From: a phage
Length of the DNA stretch: 64,000 bases
Reading direction: 5' to 3' (one strand)
NCBI GenBank assembly: GCA_009015555.1
Contig: GCA_009015555.1_3613.1
Below the pieces are notes generated by a model. That model had not been told where the DNA came from. It made no database searches and saw nothing but the letters and a program-made list of their open reading frames with translations. This document shows, piece by piece, positions 207 to 63,615 of the stretch (position 1 is the stretch's first letter; every line of letters begins with the position of its first letter). The position numbers and the translations under genes are program-made.

Positions 207-1862
207 ATGGCTAAACCAAAGGACCCTATTTACGTTTGGGCTGCTGCCGACGTAAACCTTCCAGGCACGGGTCGTCCTAACAAATCAAAACCTATTGACG
301 ACTTGCTCGCCAAGGGTTACGATAAAGGACAAAAGCCAGCAGCAGAAGAGTTCAACTATATCCTGAATATGTCCTCTGCCTGGGTTAACTGGATCGTCAA
401 CGAGAAGTTTCCAGAGCTTGAGGCAGAAATCGCCCGGCTCTTGGCAGAACTTGAAAACCGCATCAACCAGCAGTTGGCTGTTATCCGTCAGGATATTGCC
501 CAACTGAAGCAAGATGTCGCAGACCTTCGTCGGTATGTCGATCAGAAGGTTCAAGAACTGAAGCAAGAAATCCAAGGCGTCCGAAACGACCTGAACAAAC
601 TGCGTCAAGACTTTGATGCTGCGATTGCTCAAGTCAACGGACGAATTGATGACCTTGAGCCACGCCTTGTTCCAATCGGTGCCGTTATCCCTTGGCCTGG
701 GGCTACAGTCCCTAACGGCTGGTTGGAGTGTAACGGCCAGGTGTTTAATACCGGGACAAACCCTAAGCTGTATGGAGTCTTGGGGCGTAACGTTGTTCCT
801 GACTACCGTGGTCTCTTCCTGCGCGGCTGGGCACACGGCTCCGGTGCTAACGATCCTGATGCTGGTCGTGCTCTCGGTTCTGTTCAGGGTGACGCCATCC
901 GTAACATCACGGGTTACTTCCCTGCGGATATCGGTCAGTCAGGCTGGATCGGTCGTTACGTTGGTGGTGTGTTCCGGGACGATGGCGCACTGACCTCTGG
1001 TGACCAAGGATCTCGTAGTGGTGAAGTACGTAAGTATAGCCTCGATGCTTCCCGCCAGGTCCCAACGGCCCCGGAAAACCGTCCGAAGAACGTCGCGGTT
1101 ATGTACATCATCAAGACTGACCAGGCACAATCCTCCGGAGGCAACTCACCAACGGCGATCGTCGTCTCTCCAGACACAATCACCAACCGTGTAGGATACA
1201 CCGTCAAAGCGACTGCGAGTGTACTCCCTGCTTCCATCGCAGGTCAATACCCTGTAACATGGTCTACTCAAAATGCTGCGGTGGCAACGGTTGATGGTTC
1301 TGGCAACATCCGCCTTGTAGGGCCGGGTGAAACCAACATCATCGCTTCCATCTCTACCGGGATGAACGTAGCGATCCGTGTGACGAGCTATTCTGTTCTG
1401 ACCAGCATCTCCATTGCTGATCCGGGCCAGATTCCGGTCACAGAATCGAAGATGCTGGTTGTTACCAAAAACCCGGGGAGCGCGAACGAACCTCTGCAAT
1501 TCCTGTCAAATAACTCCGGTGTTGCGACTGTGAACGACGCAGGTTACGTAACTGGTGTTTCCCCGGGAAGTGCCACAATCACGGTTCGTGGTACTCTTTC
1601 CGGAGTGTCATCAACTCGTTCAGTGACTATTATCCCTGAGCAAGTGGAGGAGAGCGTACAGGACAACCGTCTCGGTGCGGTAGGATCTTACATCCCACCC
1701 GGCAACGAAATCAGTTGGACTTTCCAAGCCCCTCAAGGTTGTGCTCTGACAGGTATCATCGTACAAGACGTCGGGTCCAACTCCGCCGACAACATCGGTG
1801 GTGTTTATTACAAACCGATCCAGAAGAAAGTTAACGGCGTCTGGGTCACGATCACGGGGTAA
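207..1862 (+). CDS. tail fibre protein (tail-collar domain, coiled coil, Ig-like repeats)
   Basis: GAGGAG RBS 6 nt before ATG 207. Heptad-like coiled coil (LAELENRINQQLAVIRQDIAQLKQDV), tail-collar-like signature IGAVIPWPG..VPNGWLECNGQ..YP.L...LG..VPDYRGLFLRG, then two Big_2-like Ig segments. Confidence 0.8.
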   Translation: MAKPKDPIYVWAAADVNLPGTGRPNKSKPIDDLLAKGYDKGQKPAAEEFNYILNMSSAWVNWIVNEKFPELEAEIARLLAELENRINQQLAVIRQDIAQLKQDVADLRRYVDQKVQELKQEIQGVRNDLNKLRQDFDAAIAQVNGRIDDLEPRLVPIGAVIPWPGATVPNGWLECNGQVFNTGTNPKLYGVLGRNVVPDYRGLFLRGWAHGSGANDPDAGRALGSVQGDAIRNITGYFPADIGQSGWIGRYVGGVFRDDGALTSGDQGSRSGEVRKYSLDASRQVPTAPENRPKNVAVMYIIKTDQAQSSGGNSPTAIVVSPDTITNRVGYTVKATASVLPASIAGQYPVTWSTQNAAVATVDGSGNIRLVGPGETNIIASISTGMNVAIRVTSYSVLTSISIADPGQIPVTESKMLVVTKNPGSANEPLQFLSNNSGVATVNDAGYVTGVSPGSATITVRGTLSGVSSTRSVTIIPEQVEESVQDNRLGAVGSYIPPGNEISWTFQAPQGCALTGIIVQDVGSNSADNIGGVYYKPIQKKVNGVWVTITG

Positions 1863-34435: not shown

Positions 34436-34631
34436 CAGTTTCGAAACAGTAGAAGCCCTCGCATACCGTGCCGTCTTGGCGGGTAAAGTTGACGATGACC
34501 TCATCGTCATCGGCGTCAACAGAGACTACGACGCCCTTATCCCCCGGACTAACCCCGTCGAGGCTATAATCTTCCAGATTTTCCGGATTGAAGATAACCT
34601 TTTCGCCTACCGCTACCAGTTTGTTGCTCAT
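34413..34631 (-). CDS. hypothetical acidic protein
   Basis: 72-aa ORF; ATGA overlap with the helicase stop. Confidence 0.45.
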   Translation of the reverse strand: MSNKLVAVGEKVIFNPENLEDYSLDGVSPGDKGVVVSVDADDDEVIVNFTRQDGTVCEGFYCFETDVEVCGD

Positions 34632-35989
34632 ACCTCACCTCCAAAAATTTCAGGGAATGTCTCATGATAGAACTTACGGACACCTTGGTCAACAATAATG
34701 TCCTTCACACGTAGGCGCTTCATCAGGCGAAGACCTTCGGTGCTCGTCGCTCGGGACAGCATAACATAGGCTTGGCCCGGCGTGAAGGTGCCGAAACCTA
34801 AATCAATGTTCACTTTACCCAGCGTCAGGCCCTGTGCTTTGTGTCCGGTGATAGCATAGCCCAATTTGAACGGGAACTGCAAGTATTTCCCGATCTCTTT
34901 GTCAACCAGTACGGTCTGCTTCTCCATCACCTTGACAGTCTGCTTGGTGCCGTCTTCCAGTTCGATCTCCTTTTCAACCTGGACCATCTTTTCTTCCGGG
35001 ACCTGTGTCACGTTGGTCCACTCGTACTTGCCGATGTGGATCGGCTTTCCGTCAATGTCCACGATGACAAAAGTCTTGGCGATTTTCTTGATGATCCCCA
35101 CCGTACCGTTGACGTAATCTGGCTCCTTTTTCTTCTGGTCGTTGTCGTTAACAACAATCATGACCTTCAGACCTTCTTTCAGGTTCAGAACTTCGTTGAC
35201 CGGACGCTCCGGGAACTCGCCCGAGATCTTGGCTTCGAACACATGAGGCTGGGCCTTGATCTTCTCAAACTCCCGCTGGTTGATTTCCTCTGCGAGTTTG
35301 TTGGTGGTCGTTAAAGTCACCGCCCCTGGCAGGGCCGGGCCGAAACAGTGTTGGTTGAAGTAATCAACCGCCGCCCCGACGTTATTACCCACACGGATGT
35401 TGTTCAGGTGTTGAGCGAACACAGGATCAGACTGGCGGTGTACCTTCGGAAGATACGCATTGGTAAAATCCAGTTGGTTCCAAATATCCGAACCGAACGG
35501 GATTTCATTGCCGTGCAGTTCACGGAACATCGCCGTCTCTTCGCGCTTCAGAACAGGCTTGATCTGGAAACCGTCGCCAAACATGATGACCTGAAGGCCA
35601 CCGAAAGGCTTGTTTACCTTGCGGTGATAACGCAGCTTCATGTCGATCTCCCGCAGCTTGTCGCTACGAATCATGGAGATTTCGTCGAACACGATAGCGT
35701 CCAGCGCATTAGATGCCATCAGCATCGCAGGCTTCTTGGACTTCGCTTTGTAATCTTCCTTGGTGGTAACACCAAACGTCAGACCAAAAGCCTTGTGAGC
35801 GGTGATCCCTGAAATGTTCAGCGCCGCAATCCCTGTCGGTGCAACGAACAGGAAACTGTCAGCGAAGAACTCACGCAGAGTGGCAATCATCAAGCTCTTG
35901 CCAGATCCACCTGGCCCGGTGATGAACACGTTATCACCCGCCATGATGGCTCGCATTGCTTCTTCGTTACCAATTACTGTTTTACCCAT
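34628..35989 (-). CDS. SF1 DNA helicase (Dda/RecD/Pif1-like)
   Basis: Walker A GPGGSGKS; Walker B VFDEISM; further helicase-like motifs toward the C-terminus. Confidence 0.85.
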   Translation of the reverse strand: MGKTVIGNEEAMRAIMAGDNVFITGPGGSGKSLMIATLREFFADSFLFVAPTGIAALNISGITAHKAFGLTFGVTTKEDYKAKSKKPAMLMASNALDAIVFDEISMIRSDKLREIDMKLRYHRKVNKPFGGLQVIMFGDGFQIKPVLKREETAMFRELHGNEIPFGSDIWNQLDFTNAYLPKVHRQSDPVFAQHLNNIRVGNNVGAAVDYFNQHCFGPALPGAVTLTTTNKLAEEINQREFEKIKAQPHVFEAKISGEFPERPVNEVLNLKEGLKVMIVVNDNDQKKKEPDYVNGTVGIIKKIAKTFVIVDIDGKPIHIGKYEWTNVTQVPEEKMVQVEKEIELEDGTKQTVKVMEKQTVLVDKEIGKYLQFPFKLGYAITGHKAQGLTLGKVNIDLGFGTFTPGQAYVMLSRATSTEGLRLMKRLRVKDIIVDQGVRKFYHETFPEIFGGEV

Positions 35990-36183: not shown

Positions 36184-36372
36184 TTAATCGTGAGCCAAAC
36201 AAGCAGTGATTACAGTTGCCAAGAGGAACATCAAGGCTCCCCACCCCATCAAATACGGGACCTGGGATGAGAACTGTGCCATCATCTCAGGGAAAAAGAA
36301 CTGTGCGCCCCAGCGGGCCGGGAATATCCAAACCAGCATGAATGTAATGAACAGAATGATAAGATTTCTCAT
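36184..36372 (-). CDS. small membrane protein (two TM)
   Basis: 62 aa, two hydrophobic helices; immediately downstream of the wall hydrolase. Confidence 0.4.
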   Translation of the reverse strand: MRNLIILFITFMLVWIFPARWGAQFFFPEMMAQFSSQVPYLMGWGALMFLLATVITACLAHD

Positions 36373-36902
36373 GTCGCCTTTTCCTCTTTTGGTTTATAAA
36401 ACACATGGTAGCCGATAGTGGCTGTTTTCGTAAAGAACTTTCTCCAGTATGGCTTGACCTTCTTCGTGTGGAAGTGAGTCGCACCATGTGTTGGGTCCAG
36501 CTTGTTGTACAATACCTCATTATTCCGGATCTTGTAAAGGAATCTCGCAATATCTTGTGCGACCATCCAAGACTCCCGATCCCTGACTGCATAGCCGTTT
36601 CTTGCCATTGTCCAGGAAAATTGTGCAGATTGATACACAACCTTCCTGACTGACCCGGGATACCCGTCGTGCTTTAGCCTGTTCAGAGTAACAAATCCAA
36701 CCGCCATCTGTCCACTGATATTTTCCCCACGCGACTCGAAATAAATATTGCAGGCCAGTGCGTTGACCGACGAGTCATTGTTTTTGCACACATGAACAAC
36801 CGGGGCGAGCTTTTTCTTCGGTGCGTTATCTTTTGCCAAAGCAGATACTGGGGCGAAAGATAAAGCGCTGGCTGCGAATAGTGCAGCGATGCTCTTTTTC
36901 AT
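36369..36902 (-). CDS. secreted cell-wall hydrolase (SleB/CwlJ Hydrolase_2 family)
   Basis: Signal peptide MKKSIAALFAASALSFAPVSALA; NIYFESRGE ... GQMAVGFVTLNR ... YQSAQFSW conserved block. Confidence 0.75.
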   Translation of the reverse strand: MKKSIAALFAASALSFAPVSALAKDNAPKKKLAPVVHVCKNNDSSVNALACNIYFESRGENISGQMAVGFVTLNRLKHDGYPGSVRKVVYQSAQFSWTMARNGYAVRDRESWMVAQDIARFLYKIRNNEVLYNKLDPTHGATHFHTKKVKPYWRKFFTKTATIGYHVFYKPKEEKAT

Positions 36903-36951
36903 CCAAACTCCTAAATGAGAAAGGCCCAGTTTATCACTGAGCCTTTAGAAG

Positions 36952-37332
36952 TCAAGCCTTTTTGGAGGCTTGAGCGAGAACTCCCTTCTTAACATCTTCC
37001 CAAAGAGAATTGAGGAAAGGGTCGTTGGTGATCACGTCGGCATACCAAGGGCCGTAGATACGGTACACGGAATCGACGGTGATCGCGTACAAATGCCCAG
37101 AATGGACGGCAAGGCCAGTCACGTAGCCAGTACGCACTTGGGTCCCATCCTTACCTGTCTTCCGGCGCTTCGCCTCATTGAACTCGATATAACCTGTCAA
37201 TGTGACAATCTTCTCCGGGACCTGAAGATCCGGGAGTTTTTCGTGGCTAAGGACCTGATTCCCAGATTTACATCCCTCCAGGCACAGATTTCCGCCGTAC
37301 TTCTTCCCGTACTTACGGGCAAACTCAGCCAT
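36952..37332 (-). CDS. hypothetical protein
   Basis: Start at internal ATG (MAEFARK). Confidence 0.45.
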   Translation of the reverse strand: MAEFARKYGKKYGGNLCLEGCKSGNQVLSHEKLPDLQVPEKIVTLTGYIEFNEAKRRKTGKDGTQVRTGYVTGLAVHSGHLYAITVDSVYRIYGPWYADVITNDPFLNSLWEDVKKGVLAQASKKA

Positions 37333-37855
37333 TTTGATCGTGGACAATTTCACTCTCCTTCAGAACATAAATGGTCACATCGAAGTCTCTCAGGCGACCT
37401 TCAATCATCCGAGATATGATACCCCAATCGCCACCTGCGAGTCCAGCCCCTATTTTTGGTAGCCCGATACGAAGGTCTTGGGTACTCATATCCAGAGTAC
37501 GACACTTGGCATGGAGAGATACCGCCATTGCAGACAGGGCCGAACGCAATGCCCAGTAATCGAGGTCCATCTTACCCTCTCTGCGCCCGGTGAAGGTGTA
37601 TTGACCGTACAGATTGTAAACCAGTAAACCATTTTTGCAGAAGGCCGACGACAAAGTTCCCAGTTTAGCCCGATCACCACGGGTGGTCATTTGGTCTGCC
37701 GTCCACGCTTCCGGAAAAGCTGACGCAATCTTTGGGGCAATACCAGACTTCATGGTATTCATGCAGTTACAGCAGTGGGCTATCACGTTTACCTCTCCAG
37801 CCTGCGCCGCAGAGATCAGATCGCCCACACGGTATGTCATTTTACCACAAGGCAT
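37325..37855 (-). CDS. macro-domain protein (ADP-ribose binding / ADP-ribosyl hydrolase-like)
   Basis: VNVIAHCCNCMNTMKSGIAPKIA resembles the macro vvNAAN..l.gGgGva.aI block; later GLPKIGAGLAGG resembles fPaIstGiyG. Start chosen at MPCGK. Confidence 0.65.
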   Translation of the reverse strand: MPCGKMTYRVGDLISAAQAGEVNVIAHCCNCMNTMKSGIAPKIASAFPEAWTADQMTTRGDRAKLGTLSSAFCKNGLLVYNLYGQYTFTGRREGKMDLDYWALRSALSAMAVSLHAKCRTLDMSTQDLRIGLPKIGAGLAGGDWGIISRMIEGRLRDFDVTIYVLKESEIVHDQNG

Positions 37856-37856
37856 A

Positions 37857-38069
37857 TTAAAGTTCACCCCGCTTCGCCTTCTGGCACATCTGGAGAACGT
37901 CATAGCAAGACTGCTTGACGATCCACGGCTCGCCACGGTACAGGGTAATCAGGGTTCCCTTGCGGTCTTTCCCTTCTACTTCGGTCACCTGCGGGTGAAA
38001 CTCCCGGATATTTGCAACATCGAGGCAGATTGGTTCTTCAGACGCTAGTTGGTTCAGGTATACGAACAT
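37857..38069 (-). CDS. hypothetical protein
   Basis: 70-aa ORF. Confidence 0.4.
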   Translation of the reverse strand: MFVYLNQLASEEPICLDVANIREFHPQVTEVEGKDRKGTLITLYRGEPWIVKQSCYDVLQMCQKAKRGEL

Positions 38070-50908: not shown

Positions 50909-51262
50909 ATGATGGAGCACATTTACTTCTATCTCCTCTGGGTACTGTTCTCAGTGGTCGGCATCTGGCGTATGTTGTCCCTGATGTCCGTTTCTGGTCG
51001 TGTAGGCAATGATGACCGGGTAATGCTCTTTTTTATGCTTACCCCGGCTTGCTTTTTGATGACACCCGTGCTACTGTTCGTAGAGTTGATGTTCTGGGTC
51101 GGCAGGAAGATCGATAAGTTCAGAGAGTCCCCTCGTTACGTGACGTGGAAGATCCAACGCCAAATCCGTAAGCGCCGCCGGGGGCCGCTGGTCCGTGTTG
51201 TTGAGCACCTGCACAATAAACGTAAGGAGAAGACACGTGAAGAAGACGTACCTGAAGTATAA
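50909..51262 (+). CDS. membrane protein with basic C-terminus
   Basis: Start at ATGATG; three hydrophobic helices then RQIRKRRRGPLVR. Confidence 0.45.
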   Translation: MMEHIYFYLLWVLFSVVGIWRMLSLMSVSGRVGNDDRVMLFFMLTPACFLMTPVLLFVELMFWVGRKIDKFRESPRYVTWKIQRQIRKRRRGPLVRVVEHLHNKRKEKTREEDVPEV

Positions 51263-57793: not shown

Positions 57794-57812
57794 ATTATTT
57801 TGCTTTTGGGGG

Positions 57813-57841
57813 TTGACGCCCGGCGGCGCTTCCCCCATAAT
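57813..57841 (+). promoter_or_regulatory. sigma70 promoter with GC-rich spacer
   Basis: TTGACG-17-CATAAT, flanked by GGGGG / CCCCC. Confidence 0.7.
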
Positions 57842-57894
57842 ACACCACATAGGGCGACGGAATAACCCGCCGCCAAAAACCAAAAGGTAACAGT

Positions 57895-58134
57895 ATGCAA
57901 ACCGTAATGATTAGCCACCCGGATCACGCTTCAGATTTCTACGCACCGATCTACGCCCCGCTTGAATGGCAACGCCAGGGCCTGCAAAAAACCGCCACGG
58001 GCTATGGCACCAAGATCCCCACGTCCTATATGTTGGACTATCAAGGCAAGCGCCGCCGGATCTATGTTGACCAGTACAGCAACGCCGGGCACACTTACAT
58101 AATGATCAAAGGCGAAAAAATTACAGTTTGCTAA
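57895..58134 (+). CDS. small early-type protein (79 aa)
   Basis: AAAAGG RBS; own promoter. Confidence 0.55.
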   Translation: MQTVMISHPDHASDFYAPIYAPLEWQRQGLQKTATGYGTKIPTSYMLDYQGKRRRIYVDQYSNAGHTYIMIKGEKITVC

Positions 58135-58143
58135 AAATAATTG

Positions 58144-58172
58144 TTGACCGGGGGCCGGGTAGGCCCCATAAT
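58144..58172 (+). promoter_or_regulatory. sigma70 promoter with spacer hairpin
   Basis: TTGACC-gGGGGCCgggtaGGCCC-CATAAT. Confidence 0.75.
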
Positions 58173-58212
58173 ACCAGACATACCAAACAGACAAGAAAAC
58201 GAGGCTTACAAA

Positions 58213-58443
58213 ATGAATCTGACTACTATCGGCGCTAACCAAACCATGATCACCCTGGCCGACGGCTCACAGGTTTTCTTTTCCTACAATACCCCGGTTG
58301 CGGCATACCTGCCCGGCGTGGGCTATGTAGTGACCGCCAAAAAGCACAGCGCCACCACGTCAAAACATGTTAATGCTTGGGCTGGCAAAGGTTGCGACAC
58401 CCGCCCACAGGAATTTTTTGATAATCTCATTAAATCCGCTTGA
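58213..58443 (+). CDS. small early-type protein (76 aa)
   Basis: GAGG RBS; track start 58141 lies inside the promoter. Confidence 0.55.
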   Translation: MNLTTIGANQTMITLADGSQVFFSYNTPVAAYLPGVGYVVTAKKHSATTSKHVNAWAGKGCDTRPQEFFDNLIKSA

Positions 58444-58469
58444 CGTTTGAATTATGCCGGGGTTATAAT
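58440..58469 (+). promoter_or_regulatory. sigma70 promoter with -10 in a hairpin loop
   Basis: TTGACG-18-TATAAT; GCCGGGG-ttataat-TCCCGGC. Confidence 0.7.
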
Positions 58470-58519
58470 TCCCGGCATAGACAAGCGAAAGCAAACAACC
58501 AAACCGAAAGGATCACACA

Positions 58520-58900
58520 ATGAACATTATCAACACTGTAAACGCCGCCGACATCAAAGAAATTTCCGTAACTGGTAAACGTTGGTTCCAGCGTAGCTAC
58601 GGCAACACTTATCACAGCGTAAGCCTGGGGGCGCTGGTATCCGTTGAAGTGGCGGACCGCTTAGGCGCTAACAAGTACGGCAACAAAAGCGGCGACGTGT
58701 GGATCGACCTGGCTTATGTTGGTTTCGCCTATGGTTATGATCGCGGGTTCGAACAAACCGCATTAAGCGCGATGATCGAGGCGGTGAAGGATGCCCCGGC
58801 GGCGTGGCGTGGTATGTCCTACGCTTGCCAGGCGGCGGCGGATCTCGGGGTTGTCTACACTGATAACGTTTATGATGTTAGCCGCAAAAAAGATTTATAA
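58520..58900 (+). CDS. small early-type protein (126 aa)
   Basis: AAAGGA RBS; GYDRGFEQTAL segment loosely resembles GYNREDAAFQEAI in ORF 59264. Confidence 0.6.
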   Translation: MNIINTVNAADIKEISVTGKRWFQRSYGNTYHSVSLGALVSVEVADRLGANKYGNKSGDVWIDLAYVGFAYGYDRGFEQTALSAMIEAVKDAPAAWRGMSYACQAAADLGVVYTDNVYDVSRKKDL

Positions 58901-58906
58901 TTTTGG

Positions 58907-58936
58907 TTGACACGGGGCCGGGTTAGGCCCCATAAT
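58907..58936 (+). promoter_or_regulatory. sigma70 promoter with spacer hairpin
   Basis: TTGACA-cGGGGCCgggttaGGCCC-CATAAT. Confidence 0.75.
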
Positions 58937-58968
58937 ACCCCCACACCAACAGAAAAGAGATTGACACC

Positions 58969-59178
58969 ATGATCAACGAACAGCAAGTAAACGACGTTAA
59001 ACATGAGGCTTACCAGGTGGCGATCCGTAGTGGTTCCCGCGCCGCCTTCAATCTGGTTATTGAGTTGTACCCTGAACAGGCGGAAAATATTTTAATGCAG
59101 GTTTCCGTATTACTGGAAGCAACAAAGCACACCAAATTAAGCGCCGGGATCGATAAGCTGGCAAAAAGTTTAAAATAG
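58969..59178 (+). CDS. small early-type protein (69 aa)
   Basis: AAGAGA RBS; own promoter. Confidence 0.55.
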   Translation: MINEQQVNDVKHEAYQVAIRSGSRAAFNLVIELYPEQAENILMQVSVLLEATKHTKLSAGIDKLAKSLK

Positions 59179-59181
59179 TTG

Positions 59182-59211
59182 TTGACTCTTACCCCGTCCC
59201 GCTGGCATAAT
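59182..59211 (+). promoter_or_regulatory. sigma70 promoter with -10 in a hairpin loop
   Basis: TTGACT-18-CATAAT; GTCCCGCT-ggcataat-AGCGGGAC. Confidence 0.7.
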
Positions 59212-59263
59212 AGCGGGACTGATTAAGAGAAACACCACAAACCAAACGAAGAGAGAAAACATT

Positions 59264-59650
59264 ATGAACGCTACTTACGATTTTTCCAACATGGTTGTAA
59301 CTTCTGGCGACCTGGGCAAGGCCCGTAACCAAAACAATTTTTACAAGGCCGTTCACCTGGTCGGGCTGGTAGACAATGAGATCAAAGATCTGGCGGAGGT
59401 CCGCTTCTACGGCACCGGGAAAACTAACACGGCGATCCTTTGGATTCACTCCCCGATCCTGGGTCTGTATGGTTCGGAGTTTGGCAAGGCTGGCGGCTAT
59501 GGCTATAATCGCGAAGATGCAGCATTTCAGGAGGCGATCCGCAAGATGGGGGTTAAGGGTGACGGATACCATACGCCCCGCGATTTTTTCGAGGCCCTTG
59601 CTAAATATCTTGGGGTTGCTGTATACTCTGTTATTGAATCCCATGCTTAA
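59264..59650 (+). CDS. small early-type protein (128 aa)
   Basis: AAGAGAGAAA RBS; own promoter. Confidence 0.6.
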   Translation: MNATYDFSNMVVTSGDLGKARNQNNFYKAVHLVGLVDNEIKDLAEVRFYGTGKTNTAILWIHSPILGLYGSEFGKAGGYGYNREDAAFQEAIRKMGVKGDGYHTPRDFFEALAKYLGVAVYSVIESHA

Positions 59651-59659
59651 TGGTGTATA

Positions 59660-59971
59660 ATGACAATCGTAACTCTGATTTGTTTAGCACTGGCGGCGCT
59701 TTATTGCGTCGCCACTCACAAAGCCGCACTATGGCGAAAGGGTCAAAAAATGTACGGTTATTTTGAATACGAGTACAAAGGGGAGAAGGGATCAAGCCGG
59801 GACTATGGCGCAATGTGTGAGATCGATATGGTTGGCGCTATGAACTACCGCCAGGAGTTGGGCGCGGTGATCACTTATGAGGTTTACGACTCCTCAGAAG
59901 AGAAGATCGGAGAAATAATCGATCAACGTTACTACATGGAACAACAGCAAAACAAACGCCGGAGAAGATGA
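59660..59971 (+). CDS. hypothetical protein with N-terminal hydrophobic segment (start uncertain)
   Basis: Track ORF; alternative start at MYGYFEYEY; no clear promoter. Confidence 0.4.
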   Translation: MTIVTLICLALAALYCVATHKAALWRKGQKMYGYFEYEYKGEKGSSRDYGAMCEIDMVGAMNYRQELGAVITYEVYDSSEEKIGEIIDQRYYMEQQQNKRRRR

Positions 59972-59973
59972 GA

Positions 59974-60108
59974 ATGATTCACACTAACATTAACCGCGAT
60001 AAACAACCGCGCCGCGCCCGTCTCTCATACGCTGAAGCAGGCGAGCGCCTGCAACGTGAGAAGGCCAACAAACAACAGCGCCGTAAAACGCGCTATAACT
60101 GGGAGTAA
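59974..60108 (+). CDS. tiny Arg/Lys-rich protein (44 aa)
   Basis: Hand-translated MIHTNINRDKQPRRARLSYAEAGERLQREKANKQQRRKTRYNWE; GGAGAAGATGAGA before the ATG. Confidence 0.35.
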   Translation: MIHTNINRDKQPRRARLSYAEAGERLQREKANKQQRRKTRYNWE

Positions 60109-60143
60109 GCGCCCCGGCATGGAAACACCAGGCCAAACAGTTT

Positions 60144-60170
60144 AAACCGCACAGGGGGCCGCTTAGGCCC
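60144..60170 (+). terminator. rho-independent terminator
   Basis: GGGGGCC-GCTTA-GGCCCC followed by TTATTTTTT. Confidence 0.75.
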
Positions 60171-60184
60171 CTTATTTTTTATCT

Positions 60185-60424
60185 ATGGGGTACACAATGC
60201 AAAACCTTTTAACCTTAACAGATTTTATCCGGGCTATGGGGTCCCGTCCGATGGGGTTTAGCGCCCTTTACCTGGTAACCGATGGCAAAGGATACCGCGC
60301 CACCTGCAAAGCGCTTGCCGCCGTTGCGGCCCGCGAAGGGGTCAAGATCTCCACGGGTCAAGCCTTGGTAGTTGACCCGGCGACATTGGCAACGGCGGAG
60401 GCGATCCGGGTCACTGTAAAATAA
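60185..60424 (+). CDS. small early-type protein (75-79 aa)
   Basis: ATG at 60185 or 60197; no promoter of its own. Confidence 0.5.
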   Translation: MGYTMQNLLTLTDFIRAMGSRPMGFSALYLVTDGKGYRATCKALAAVAAREGVKISTGQALVVDPATLATAEAIRVTVK

Positions 60425-60448
60425 TTTAAAATATTTTCATCCTGGGGC

Positions 60449-60477
60449 TTGACGTCCGGCCCCGGTTCCCCCATAAT
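60449..60477 (+). promoter_or_regulatory. sigma70 promoter with GC-rich spacer
   Basis: TTGACG-tccGGCCCCggttcccc-CATAAT. Confidence 0.75.
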
Positions 60478-60527
60478 CTAACCCATAGCGACGCACACCG
60501 CGCCGCACTAACAGAAGAGAGACCGTT

Positions 60528-60962
60528 ATGACTTCCCCAATTTTCCGTATCAAATCAGGTTTATCCGTTTACGCACTGGCTTGCGGCTATATCCAAGAGA
60601 TCGACACAAAGATCACCGGGAAAAATATCCGGGTACAGCTTTTAATGGAACACGGCGCTTTTCACGTCAAGGCACATGATTTTGATGACGTGGGCCGGAT
60701 CGAGTGGGTTGTTGAAGATCAGATCGGCGACGCCCGCACACAATGGAAAGCGCTTGTTAATCAGCTTTTCGGGGAAGTTATCCGCACAATCAAAAAAGAT
60801 AAGCGCTACACCGTAACCCGTGAATTTTCCGGCGACCCTTGCGGGGCCTTGTATGTTACCCGTTTTTGTGGGGAATTTGTAAGCCGTGCCGACACAATCC
60901 CCGGCGCATGGGTAAAAGCCGCCGAACACAACGCCGAAAGAATGAAAAATTATCAAAAATAA
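60528..60962 (+). CDS. small early-type protein (144 aa)
   Basis: Shares the conserved leader with ORFs 56648 and 63616. Confidence 0.6.
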   Translation: MTSPIFRIKSGLSVYALACGYIQEIDTKITGKNIRVQLLMEHGAFHVKAHDFDDVGRIEWVVEDQIGDARTQWKALVNQLFGEVIRTIKKDKRYTVTREFSGDPCGALYVTRFCGEFVSRADTIPGAWVKAAEHNAERMKNYQK

Positions 60963-60964
60963 TT

Positions 60965-60993
60965 GTTGACCGGGGCCGGGTTAGGCCCCATAA
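60965..60993 (+). promoter_or_regulatory. sigma70 promoter with spacer hairpin
   Basis: TTGACC-GGGGCCgggttaGGCCC-CATAAT. Confidence 0.75.
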
Positions 60994-61025
60994 TACCCCC
61001 AGACAAACAAACCGGAGTTAGACCA

Positions 61026-61178
61026 ATGAAACAATATCTTGTAAACATCCCTGGCGTGGCTGGCCCGTTGAAAGTTTATGGCTATGATGAGCAGGACGCA
61101 AGAAAGCGCCTACGTGATCGGGAAGGTTTCGGATCACGCCTCCCACGTGGCACAAAATTTTATTTGCAAAACGCTTGA
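61026..61178 (+). CDS. tiny basic protein (50 aa)
   Basis: GGAG RBS; track start 60963 lies inside the promoter. Confidence 0.45.
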   Translation: MKQYLVNIPGVAGPLKVYGYDEQDARKRLRDREGFGSRLPRGTKFYLQNA

Positions 61179-61203
61179 CGTGTGGTTATGCCGTCGCCTA
61201 TAA
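61174..61203 (+). promoter_or_regulatory. sigma70 promoter with -10 in a hairpin loop
   Basis: TTGACG-18-TATAAT; ATGCCGTC-gcctataat-GACGGCAT. Confidence 0.7.
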
Positions 61204-61257
61204 TGACGGCATAGACAAACGAAAGCAACACCAGACAACCAAACGAGGGTTAAAATT

Positions 61258-61515
61258 ATGTTTGAAGTATTCGCCGGAATGTGTTTTTATGCCGCCGCCG
61301 CTTTAAAACAGTGTGATGATTACACCGTTGAAGCATACGACGATCAGTTAACTTGCGAGATCGTCGCCAACGGCTACCGCCAGGACCCGCGCTGGATTAA
61401 TCCGGCTTGTATCCCTGGGCCGGAAGTTGAAGCAATGCCGGAAGGTGAGCCGCTATTAGAACCGATCCCGGCGGCTAATCACTTGAACGTAAACCCGGCG
61501 CAAAAAGAGTATTAA
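61258..61515 (+). CDS. small early-type acidic protein (85 aa)
   Basis: GAGGG RBS; own promoter. Confidence 0.55.
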   Translation: MFEVFAGMCFYAAAALKQCDDYTVEAYDDQLTCEIVANGYRQDPRWINPACIPGPEVEAMPEGEPLLEPIPAANHLNVNPAQKEY

Positions 61516-61521
61516 AAGCGC

Positions 61522-61551
61522 TTGACGCCGGGACGGTTCCCGGCTTATAAT
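61522..61551 (+). promoter_or_regulatory. sigma70 promoter, CCGGGA...TCCCGG spacer palindrome
   Basis: TTGACG-CCGGGAcggtTCCCGGC-TTATAAT. Confidence 0.8.
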
Positions 61552-61588
61552 CTCAGACATACCAAACAGGCAAATGAGGCCGCAAATC

Positions 61589-61795
61589 ATGACACGTTAT
61601 TTTGTTACTCGCAATGTTTACCGCTTAGAAAATGGCAACGTTTACCGCTGGAGTGGGGCGCGTGGTGGCTGGTTGCACCGTGACGGCTTTACCCCTTCAG
61701 ATCTCACCGATGGGACCGTGATCGGCGCGGTTGAGGTATCAGAAGAGGAAGCAAACCGCCGGATCTCTGAATTGTTAAAAGGCGGTGCAAAATGA
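61589..61795 (+). CDS. small early-type protein (68 aa)
   Basis: GAGG RBS; own promoter. Confidence 0.5.
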   Translation: MTRYFVTRNVYRLENGNVYRWSGARGGWLHRDGFTPSDLTDGTVIGAVEVSEEEANRRISELLKGGAK

Positions 61796-61971
61796 AATCA
61801 TCTTTACTTTTCGCCCTGGTTGACATCGTGATCGGCAATGGTTGCGGGCAACATACATTTATTGCTAACCGCCCCTATCCGCTAAAGTCATTGCAGGCTG
61901 ACGCCCGATTAACAGCGGCACAGATCCGCCGCTACTTTCGGGAACCACACCCGGCAAAGAATGCAAAATAA
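61792..61971 (+). CDS. small protein (59 aa), translationally coupled
   Basis: Hand-translated MKSSLLFALVDIVIGNGCGQHTF..; ATGA overlap. Confidence 0.4.
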   Translation: MKSSLLFALVDIVIGNGCGQHTFIANRPYPLKSLQADARLTAAQIRRYFREPHPAKNAK

Positions 61972-61974
61972 TTG

Positions 61975-62004
61975 TTGACGCCGGGCACCGTCCCGGCTTA
62001 CAAT
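61975..62004 (+). promoter_or_regulatory. sigma70 promoter, GCCGGG...CCCGGC spacer palindrome
   Basis: TTGACG-CCGGGCaccgTCCCGGC-TTACAAT. Confidence 0.75.
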
Positions 62005-62034
62005 GACCCCACACAAACAAACGAGGCTTTAAAC

Positions 62035-62340
62035 ATGCAACAGGCTAACACTCTTTTCATTCTGGCAAACGTAGCGGATCACGTCGTGGCGTCGCTGTCC
62101 AACGTAGCGGGCACCGTCCAGATCATTTGTCGTCATATGGATGACAAAGCGCCGAACCGCTTACAAATCAACGTAGACCGCGACGGGAAAGAATTTGTGA
62201 TCTCTTATGACGCTATCTATAATGGCAACCGGATCACGCAAGCCAAAAGCCAACCGATCCCCGCCGATTTTATCCAGCAAGTGATCGCCGAAATCGTAAA
62301 CGACACGATCCCAGCGGGGGCGCTGTATGAATCCGCATAA
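62035..62340 (+). CDS. small early-type protein (101 aa)
   Basis: GAGG RBS; track start 61972 lies inside the promoter. Confidence 0.55.
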   Translation: MQQANTLFILANVADHVVASLSNVAGTVQIICRHMDDKAPNRLQINVDRDGKEFVISYDAIYNGNRITQAKSQPIPADFIQQVIAEIVNDTIPAGALYESA

Positions 62341-62482
62341 ACTCTTAATCACCAGTTACCCCAGCAAGGCGGATCGCCGTGAAACTTTGGACCGCTTAAC
62401 GCGCTACTATCAGGAGGCCGGGCACAATAAGACAACCGCCCGCGCCCTGGCTAAAAAGCGTTTGCGATTTGGTAAAAATTAG
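62327..62482 (+). CDS. tiny basic protein (51 aa)
   Basis: Hand-translated MNPHKLLITSYPSKADRRETLDRLTRYYQEAGHNKTTARALAKKRLRFGKN; overlaps the upstream gene by 14 nt. Confidence 0.4.
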   Translation: MNPHKLLITSYPSKADRRETLDRLTRYYQEAGHNKTTARALAKKRLRFGKN

Positions 62483-62483
62483 C

Positions 62484-62513
62484 TTGACGCCGGGAACCGT
62501 CCCGGCTTATAAT
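62484..62513 (+). promoter_or_regulatory. sigma70 promoter, GCCGGG...CCCGGC spacer palindrome
   Basis: TTGACG-CCGGGAaccgTCCCGGC-TTATAAT. Confidence 0.8.
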
Positions 62514-62564
62514 CTCTCACATAGCGCGGGGGATGGTCCCCGCATTATCTAAGAGGTTATGAAT

Positions 62565-62717
62565 ATGTTTACTTTGATGACTTGGGAACACGAAACAAGC
62601 TCCCCGATCCGCCGCACTTTTGAAGACCTATGCGCCGCTTATCGCCTGGCGCAAGGCGGTTATTATAAGGCCCAAATCATTGATGAAAACAATGTGATCA
62701 TGTACGAATTTAAATGA
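62565..62717 (+). CDS. tiny protein (50 aa)
   Basis: Hand-translated MFTLMTWEHETSSPIRRTFEDLCAAYRLAQGGYYKAQIIDENNVIMYEFK; AAGAGG RBS 8 nt upstream. Confidence 0.45.
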   Translation: MFTLMTWEHETSSPIRRTFEDLCAAYRLAQGGYYKAQIIDENNVIMYEFK

Positions 62718-62746
62718 TTGACATCCGGCCCGAAAGGGCCGATAAT
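62718..62746 (+). promoter_or_regulatory. sigma70 promoter with spacer hairpin
   Basis: TTGACA-tccGGCCCgaaaGGGCC-GATAAT. Confidence 0.7.
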
Positions 62747-62777
62747 GACCCACACCAACAAAAGAGAGACCGTAAAA

Positions 62778-62984
62778 ATGATTACAATGATTCTGCAAAA
62801 GTCCCGCCTGATTGATGTTACTGTTACCCTGTCCGCTTGCGGTGAATCATCCCGCCGGGCCGATCATTACCAGGTTACCGCTGTAAGCGACAACGGCGCG
62901 ATCCTTCTCTCTGAAGCGACCCCCGCGCTACATGAGGCATTTTTGACCTATTCGAAGTGGAAAGGGCCGGAAGAAATAAAATAA
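62778..62984 (+). CDS. small early-type protein (68 aa)
   Basis: Track start 62718 lies inside the promoter; start taken at MITMILQ. Confidence 0.5.
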   Translation: MITMILQKSRLIDVTVTLSACGESSRRADHYQVTAVSDNGAILLSEATPALHEAFLTYSKWKGPEEIK

Positions 62985-62991
62985 AAAGTAG

Positions 62992-63020
62992 TTGACGGCG
63001 GGGCCGATAGGCCCCATAAT
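62992..63020 (+). promoter_or_regulatory. sigma70 promoter with spacer hairpin
   Basis: TTGACG-gcGGGGCCgataGGCCC-CATAAT. Confidence 0.75.
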
Positions 63021-63052
63021 ACCCCCACACCAAACGAAATAGGATTCACAAA

Positions 63053-63307
63053 ATGTTAAAATTCATCAAATCACTTTTCACCCGCACCGCCCCGGCTTGC
63101 AAGTTGCCACCGCTGGAGGCGCAAGGCGTGATCGCTCGCAAAGTCTCAGAACTGTTTATCATTTCATTGGTTCACAATGGCGGCGACTGTTACGAAATCA
63201 TCGAAATGGGCCGCTACACCAACACCGGATCAAGCCGTGTCCGCTACGGTGAACACCGCGCCCGGAATCATTTTGATTCTGTATGCTGTATGGTTGGTGC
63301 AAAATGA
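63053..63307 (+). CDS. small early-type protein (84 aa)
   Basis: AGGA RBS; own promoter. Confidence 0.55.
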   Translation: MLKFIKSLFTRTAPACKLPPLEAQGVIARKVSELFIISLVHNGGDCYEIIEMGRYTNTGSSRVRYGEHRARNHFDSVCCMVGAK

Positions 63308-63516
63308 TCGCGTTTACCTTTGAGCGCCTGCCGGACACCTCCCCCCGCTGGGGGGAGTGTGAAGAGGTTGTGATCCTTGCCCGCGATGAGGCGCAAGCCT
63401 GGCAGATGTTAGGGGAATATGTAGCGGCGCACACGTTGCCAGCCTGGAAGCTGGCAGAACAAAAGCCAGCCGCGCCCGGCGTGATCTTTTTCACGTCCTA
63501 CACGTTAGGCGTTTAA
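63304..63516 (+). CDS. small protein (70 aa), translationally coupled
   Basis: ATGA overlap with the upstream stop. Confidence 0.5.
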   Translation: MIAFTFERLPDTSPRWGECEEVVILARDEAQAWQMLGEYVAAHTLPAWKLAEQKPAAPGVIFFTSYTLGV

Positions 63517-63533
63517 TCTTTACAAAACTATTG

Positions 63534-63563
63534 TTGACGCCGGGCACCGTCCCGGCCTATAAT
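63534..63563 (+). promoter_or_regulatory. sigma70 promoter, GCCGGG...CCCGGC spacer palindrome
   Basis: TTGACG-CCGGGCaccgTCCCGGC-CTATAAT, followed by the conserved leader. Confidence 0.8.
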
Positions 63564-63615
63564 TCACCACATAGCGACGCACACCGCGCCGCGCTAACAG
63601 AAGAGAGATCGTAAA

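Follow-up and report, generated by a model that had tools for sequence, protein, structure and literature searches.

What is a cell wall hydrolase with a signal peptide doing among the replication genes of a phage, and what does the small membrane protein encoded directly behind it contribute? The question is raised by two overlapping genes at positions 36,184 to 36,902 of a 64,000-nucleotide (nt) stretch of phage DNA (contig GCA_009015555.1_3613.1 of GenBank assembly GCA_009015555.1), hereafter the window, in which an earlier note had seen a secreted SleB-type wall hydrolase with a partner of two transmembrane domains (TMDs). The answer that we favor, and to which we give an even chance, is that the first gene encodes a Sec-exported auxiliary muralytic enzyme of the signal-peptide (SP) endolysin kind, and the second an accessory membrane modulator rather than an essential holin.

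Both open reading frames (ORFs) are present in the ORF list on the minus strand, at exactly the coordinates of the earlier note. The hydrolase gene (36369..36902) encodes 177 amino acids (aa) with a Hydrolase_2, SleB-CwlJ catalytic domain and has the orthologues CR8 gp090, CR3_087, CB7_83, and phiTE_033. The membrane protein gene (36184..36372) encodes a two-helix protein of 62 aa, predicted to reside in the inner membrane, with the orthologues CR8 gp089, CB7_82, and phiTE_032. The TGA of the hydrolase gene shares the sequence ATGA with the ATG of the 62-aa gene, and each of the two has its own Shine-Dalgarno sequence (GAGGA for the 62-aa gene). Gene order and overlap confirm that the small membrane gene follows the hydrolase gene and does not precede it, and the ATGA arrangement indicates that its translation is coupled to that of the hydrolase. 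Over the 5 kb that surround the pair, the window shares 97.8% identity with Cronobacter phage CR8 and 96-98% with CR3, PBES 02, P7_Pc, and DU_PP_I/IV, relatives that belong to the genus Certrevirus (CR3/CR8 group) in the subfamily Vequintavirinae; the 62-aa protein is 100% identical to its CR3 counterpart. As the pair is conserved in ~20 phage genomes and in metagenomic contigs, it is not a chance pair of ORFs.

The case for export begins at the N-terminus of the hydrolase. Hydropathy divides it into MKK, the hydrophobic stretch SIAALFAASALSFA, and PVSALA, with KDNAPKKK following, which is the n/h/c layout of a signal peptide. The corresponding codons (36834..36902, minus strand) specify residues 1-23, MKKSIAALFAASALSFAPVSALA, with a predicted signal peptidase I cut after ALA. 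In an alignment of 38 sequences (the window hydrolase and its 37 closest homologues, at 43-99% identity) position -1 is Ala and position -3 is A, S, V, G or C in all 38, and position -6 is Pro, Ser or Thr in 36; position -2 is variable and often bulky, and the h-region varies too. This strict -3/-1 pattern points to selection on cleavage by signal peptidase I. The orthologues in T5 (MKAAWLLVAALTFSFSSQAS, cut before HD), the rV5-like phage nomine, SSE121, and phi92 start with strongly hydrophobic, ordinary signal peptides, which together with the conserved cut site leads us to read the N-terminus as cleavable. A linker rich in Lys and Pro separates the h-region from the fold. On inspection, export as a lipoprotein was rejected, since there is no Cys at +1 and no lipobox, as was export through Tat, the twin-arginine motif being absent. 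The PBES 02 record carries a sig_peptide annotation on the hydrolase, the CB7 paper reports a signal peptide on this protein (PMC7344957), and the P7_Pc paper repeats that account, including the signal peptide. The cleavable type of signal peptide proposed earlier is thus borne out by the layout and the -3/-1 residues, and Sec export would bring the hydrolase to the cell wall without any holin.

What would be exported is a recognizable catalytic domain. The 177-aa protein matches Pfam Hydrolase_2 (PF07486) over residues 59-169 (E 2.6e-22; 79.8 bits against a cut-off of 27), covering the model in full (positions 1-100 of 100), and it matches PHROG 938, 'endolysin' (E 5.9e-26). This Pfam envelope corresponds to 36396..36728 on the minus strand, and the fold begins near residue 37. 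An AlphaFold2 (AF2) model built on a 61-sequence alignment has a pLDDT (predicted local distance difference test) of 89.6. In a Foldseek search against the PDB, the sole significant matches of this model were two SleB catalytic domains, from B. cereus and B. anthracis (4f55 and 4fet; probability 1.00, TM-score 0.72-0.77 normalized by target), nothing else reaching E <1; identity to these domains is ~24% over the aligned fold. Just upstream of the Pfam domain, E56 in the motif FESRGE aligns with the Glu of YGESRGE in the SleB proteins of the same two species, and it is invariant in the 61-sequence alignment. Likewise, C39, C51, E56, and E60 are invariant in all 38 homologues, and the two Cys residues may form a disulfide once the protein has reached the periplasm. 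By homology, the mature enzyme would be a single-domain glycan-strand cleaver, a lytic transglycosylase using Glu56. The authors of the CB7 paper state that the orthologue CB7_83 is toxic when expressed in E. coli, with the data not shown (PMC7344957).

The label 'SleB-type' therefore needs qualification. It holds for the catalytic domain, on the strength of PF07486, the fold, and the ExRGE motif, but not for a full SleB: true SleB membership was rejected with the equivalog model TIGR02869, which scores 48.5 bits against a cut-off of 236.5 and is matched at model positions 83-201 only, and a Pfam search found no peptidoglycan-binding domain in the 177-aa protein. Judged by its domain content, the architecture is CwlJ-like.

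The partner is as small as described. Hydropathy gives two hydrophobic stretches in the 62-aa protein, at about residues 3-19 and 38-60, and the AF2 model is a helical hairpin (H2-26 and H37-61, pLDDT 72), so that the two-TMD description stands. The protein belongs to phrog_10205 (E 6.6e-30), a PHROG family labeled only 'membrane protein', and has no Pfam or NCBIfam match. Its N-terminus carries Arg/Lys and its loop is net neutral to acidic, a charge distribution from which we infer an N-in/C-in topology with a periplasmic loop of ~20 residues; the TMHMM result for CB7_82 in the CB7 paper gives the same topology (PMC7344957). Small size, two TMDs, and this predicted topology are traits of class II holins and pinholins. 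Other holin traits were not found. The protein ends in ...CLAHD, ~2 residues past TMD2, and has no charged C-terminal tail (other versions end in TVGNE, GDSL or KGKD); there is no dual start, the next Met being residue 12, within TMD1; and Pfam, NCBIfam, and PHROG gave no holin-family match. The conserved residues gather in or near the loop (W15, R/K20, FPE(L/M)(M/V)A, VP), and this loop, not the TMDs, is the best-conserved part of the protein.

Its distribution argues in the same direction. The gene occurs in 20 phage records, directly 3' of the hydrolase gene except in DU_PP_I/IV, where one inserted ORF lies between them. A word-indexed search for relatives of the protein gave 6 clusters. 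When 1.84 billion representatives were searched exhaustively with a profile, 4 matched at E <=0.001, including a protein of 1231 aa in which the match covers a short stretch; neither search found a broader family. Two sequence types exist, one of 62 aa ending in ...AHD and one of 65-72 aa ending in ...VGNE or similar; they are 38% identical yet fall into one PHROG, and CB7 and phiTE carry a 65-aa version of the second type ('type B'). Two Certrevirus-like metagenomic contigs, L016 and L021 (hydrolases 63% and 68% identical), lack the gene, and in them a soluble 61-aa gene comes straight after the hydrolase gene. L014 (hydrolase 43% identical) lacks it too, and L017-L020 have it. In CR9 (L008, ~1490..1700) it is frameshifted between TMD1 and TMD2 into two unannotated reading frames, so that it is there either a pseudogene or wrongly sequenced. 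An essential lysis timer would be expected in all related genomes, and this gene is not found in all of them; its absence from close relatives argues against the 62-aa protein as the essential holin. Patchy presence, a tiny family, and swapped types thus characterize what would be an accessory protein.

Co-variation of hydrolase type with membrane type was also considered and rejected: hydrolases that are ~90% identical pair with type A or type B, and there is hence no sign of co-evolution of the partner with the catalytic domain. A separate case of exchange is seen in DU_PP_I (L006, 1331..2698), whose flanks are 98% identical to the window. There, the hydrolase diverges past the signal peptide (54% identity overall) and is followed by an inserted 216-aa ORF that matches nothing in Pfam and by a membrane gene of the other sequence type; to judge from this comparison, DU_PP_I carries a swapped module within an otherwise near-identical region.

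From these features the following course can be proposed. Transcription of the hydrolase gene would accompany that of the replication (middle) genes and apparently start at a sigma-70-like promoter of its own. Cytoplasmic synthesis with a classical Sec signal peptide would be followed by export, a cut after Ala23, and folding in the periplasm, where a Cys39-Cys51 disulfide probably forms. Restrained there, the enzyme would most likely aid wall breakdown once the membrane is depolarized at lysis, acting beside a soluble GH108 endolysin and spanins. Translational coupling would keep the 62-aa N-in/C-in protein at a constant ratio to the enzyme. To go by the conservation of its periplasmic loop, this protein may modulate when or how strongly the enzyme acts, as a depolarizer or as a restraint.

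The promoter in this scheme lies in a conserved 49-nt intergenic element 5' of the hydrolase gene (36903..36955, minus strand), where a promoter-like site at 36928..36955, within a hairpin, is followed by an AGGAG ribosome-binding site. The element is nearly invariant in 7 Certrevirus genomes. The hairpin, in 36900..36960, folds to -23.2 kcal/mol (z -4.1), and its outer stem pairs the Shine-Dalgarno sequence of the hydrolase gene. A transcript started at this promoter would not contain the 5' arm and might leave the ribosome-binding site free, and read-through transcripts might be translationally silent. No compensatory change was found for the outer stem, phiTE, F1M1E, and CR9 having an uncompensated U-to-C. 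In rV5-like and Seunavirus genomes there are clear terminators at the equivalent spot. As for timing, strong promoter-like sites of the form TGTTGAC-N18/19-(C/T)ATAAT with A-rich upstream tracts cluster at 57800..63600 on the plus strand, and they agree with the consensus that has been reported for early promoters of the genus. With such early-type promoters at 57.8-63.5 kb on the plus strand and none here, middle-phase expression is the most reasonable guess; a literature search for transcript timing in Vequintavirinae found nothing relevant.

Several points weigh against the auxiliary enzyme with its accessory modulator. Muralytic activity, export, cleavage, timing, and the role of the partner are all deduced from sequence. 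A periplasmic hydrolase made in mid-infection should lyse the cell early unless a restraint, so far hypothetical, holds it back. The location among replication genes, together with a linkage to rIIA/rIIB in sister genera, could equally mean a non-lytic role. The promoter-like site itself is a sigma-70-like TTGACT-16-TAAACT preceded by TG, matching at 9 of 12 positions, and the phiTE annotators call the same element a terminator, at odds with a promoter of its own for the hydrolase gene. Finally, the stretch S4-A23 of the h-region consists of 20 residues with 60% Ala+Ser and resembles signal-arrest-release (SAR) domains. These points lead to the alternatives, which we take in turn.

In the CB7 paper the pair is viewed as the main lysis module of the phage, an SP endolysin triggered by a depolarizing class II holin or pinholin, and the product of the overlapping two-TMD gene is called a 'candidate class II holin' (section 2.8; PMC7344957). 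The same paper describes Certrevirus as lacking a classic lysis cassette, with the spanins next to the terminase and with CR9 exceptional for the small protein (PMC7344957). The two genes do adjoin and overlap, the predicted topology of the small protein is suitable, no other recognized holin is annotated in the genus, and the small membrane gene is diverse and swapped among close relatives, as holins often are. The remaining lysis genes tell a different story. A soluble endolysin requires a hole-forming holin, and the near-identical CR8 encodes such an endolysin in gp213 (197 aa, GH108 and PG_binding_3, with neither signal peptide nor TMD), which a pinholin could not free. With gp213 and the Rz/Rz1-like spanins gp266/gp265, just before the terminase, scattered over the CR8 genome and lying outside the window, the earlier statement that this is no canonical holin-endolysin cassette proves correct. 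A candidate class II holin can be named in a 116-aa protein (50912..51262, plus strand; phrog_14197) whose two TMDs are followed by a very basic C-terminal tail (…KIQRQIRKRRRGP…KRKEKTREEDVPEV); its gene is present in 23 Certrevirus records and intact in CR9, and by its sequence it would fit the classical description better than the 62-aa protein does. The missing holin traits of the latter and its greater conservation in the loop than in the TMDs speak against the main lysis module as well, and the phages in which the partner is absent (L016/L021) or frameshifted (CR9) must lyse all the same. We therefore regard this explanation as unlikely. The earlier suggestion of an SP endolysin with a pinholin-like partner stays plausible in its first half, through the signal peptide, and is weakened in its second by a partner that is patchy among relatives and has neither the tail, the dual start, nor the family of a holin.

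A second alternative, to be judged rather improbable, is that the enzyme serves non-lytic remodeling of the wall in the periplasm during the early or middle phase (loosening of the sacculus, or a change of the envelope), with the 62-aa protein or rIIA/rIIB guarding the membrane. Its first support is the position behind a sigma-70-like promoter and among replication genes. The pair is flanked by a PIF1/Dda-type helicase (34628..35989) and a macro-domain phosphatase (37325..37936), both on the minus strand and identified through Pfam and PHROG; other neighbors are the soluble 61-aa protein and a 133-aa protein of unknown function. In the CR8 genome, a primase/helicase and DNA polymerase follow further along on the same strand, so that the pair was rightly placed inside the replication block. 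The upstream 133-aa gene was rejected as part of a wider module, because it is kept only in Certrevirus-like genomes and not in rV5-like or Seunavirus genomes. Two of the neighbors differ between genomes. The ORF of the macro-domain phosphatase, which has a GTG start, is 203 aa long in the window and 180 aa in the CR8 annotation, and the true start is probably internal to the called ORF. The PIF1-type helicase gene measures 2472 nt in phiTE (L009, 911..3382) and 1362 nt in the window; the longer phiTE gene fits the intein reported for the CB7 helicase.

The second support comes from other phages. SleB-like matches occur in 1323 phage records, including T5-like, rV5-like, phi92-like, and Pseudomonas phages, and large virulent phages of Gram-negative bacteria commonly carry SleB-like genes with signal peptides. 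In T5-like phages the SleB-like gene is reported to lie far from the holin-M15 endolysin pair, the authors calling its role unknown, and the T5 homologue is found among putative early promoters. The gene overlaps rIIA by 4 nt in rV5-like phages (nomine, L010, 1941..4420) and lies 190 nt upstream of rIIA in Seunavirus (SSE121, L011, 1932..4447). Certrevirus has no rIIA/B (PMC7344957), and there the small membrane gene occupies the rIIA/rIIB slot. All of these phages own a separate canonical endolysin.

Wall remodeling of this kind has no known precedent, and the toxicity of the CB7 orthologue fits a lytic enzyme. Early transcription is also a property of the T4 and T5 endolysin genes, so that gene position says little about function. 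A more specific version of the idea seems to us less probable again: that in Certrevirus, rV5-like, Seunavirus, phi92, and T5-like phages the SleB-like hydrolase is not an endolysin, and that it forms an early or middle remodeling unit with rIIA/rIIB (in Vequintavirus and Seunavirus) or with the membrane protein of 62-72 aa. If true, the rII proteins, long an enigma, would gain a concrete partner. The experimental literature is of little help here, as searches on phage SleB-like enzymes and T5 sleB found no relevant experimental work, and no genetic or biochemical data for any orthologue turned up in them; the KPP-1 endolysin study used a GH19 enzyme and not the SleB-like one.

The third alternative concerns the N-terminus. 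In a SAR endolysin, it would stay uncleaved and tether the inactive enzyme until depolarization. The length and the Ala+Ser content of S4-A23 would suit this arrangement. The strictly conserved -3/-1 site, with a helix breaker at -6, would not, nor would the Lys/Pro-rich linker or the Ile/Leu/Phe-rich h-regions of the orthologues from other genera, and we consider a SAR endolysin very improbable. There is a precedent for such a correction in T4 RI, whose presumed SAR domain is reported to have turned out to be a cleavable signal peptide (PMC8385771). That the protein is a virion-associated, ejection-phase wall hydrolase, as the earlier note had offered for a peptidoglycan hydrolase outside any lysis cassette, can be practically dismissed, because Sec export takes it out of the cytoplasm where particles assemble and because CB7_83 is not in the mass spectrometry table of 26 CB7 virion proteins, in which the gp25-like tail lysozyme CB7_28 does appear.

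The Sec-exported auxiliary enzyme with an accessory membrane partner therefore remains our preferred account, and much of its basis has been described before. RefSeq labels the CR8 proteins 'endolysin (SleB)' and 'membrane protein', and since the CB7 paper and database records hold the same genes, features, and hypothesis, the finding is a rediscovery of an in silico description. To this we would add the evidence that the cleavage site is under selection, the pair of invariant Cys residues, the non-holin features and patchy occurrence of the partner, the positional exchange with rIIA/B, the putative promoter-in-hairpin element, and the alternative holin candidate. Many large lytic phages with a canonical endolysin retain a second, secreted SleB-like hydrolase, and the reason for this is the modest question that remains. 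Its answer would clarify how lysis is timed in phages without a cassette and whether Sec-exported hydrolases need a membrane partner, and exported single-domain hydrolases acting on Enterobacteriaceae walls hold some interest as enzybiotic scaffolds.

When the pair is set beside known systems, the closest are CB7_83/CB7_82 and their counterparts in CR8, CR3, phiTE, and PBES 02 (ADU18_0206/0205), which are the same genes without material difference; the published description of CB7 matches in the signal peptide, the overlapping downstream gene with two TMDs, and the lack of a classic cassette. Among characterized enzymes, the SP endolysins Lys44 of Oenococcus phage fOg44 and that of the Campylobacter Fletchervirus F352 are exported by Sec and activated by holin-driven depolarization (PMC7692668). 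The window hydrolase resembles them in an n/h/c signal peptide apart from the catalytic domain, in predicted Sec export without a holin, and in lysis genes that do not form a cassette. In contrast to these enzymes, which have an SLT or muramidase domain, it has Hydrolase_2, the genome also encodes a soluble endolysin, and activation by a holin and a role in lysis are for this enzyme proposals.

Bacillus has sleB and, downstream of it, ypeB in a single operon. The catalytic fold and the ExRGE motif with its catalytic Glu are shared with Bacillus SleB/CwlJ (4f55, 4fet), and the membrane-anchored YpeB is reported to keep SleB inactive (PMC13252411). Unlike Bacillus SleB, the phage enzyme has no N-terminal peptidoglycan-binding domain, its substrate cannot be the muramic-lactam cortex, and its 62-aa partner is unrelated to YpeB. 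In comparison with the S21 68 pinholin and the SAR endolysin and pinholin of phiKMV, the small protein is alike in its two TMDs, its predicted N-in/C-in topology, and its position adjoining an exported endolysin. It differs from class II holins in having no charged C-terminal domain, dual start or family match, in being encoded 3' and not 5' of the endolysin, and in being dispensable in relatives. A precedent for a partner that restrains is the lysis inhibitor F379_024 of a Firehammervirus, the gene for which overlaps that of a Sec-dependent endolysin, and which on co-expression delayed and limited lysis (PMC7692668). The likeness lies in a small gene that overlaps an endolysin gene; F379_024 has 106 aa, is encoded upstream of its endolysin, and is unrelated in sequence to the 62-aa protein.

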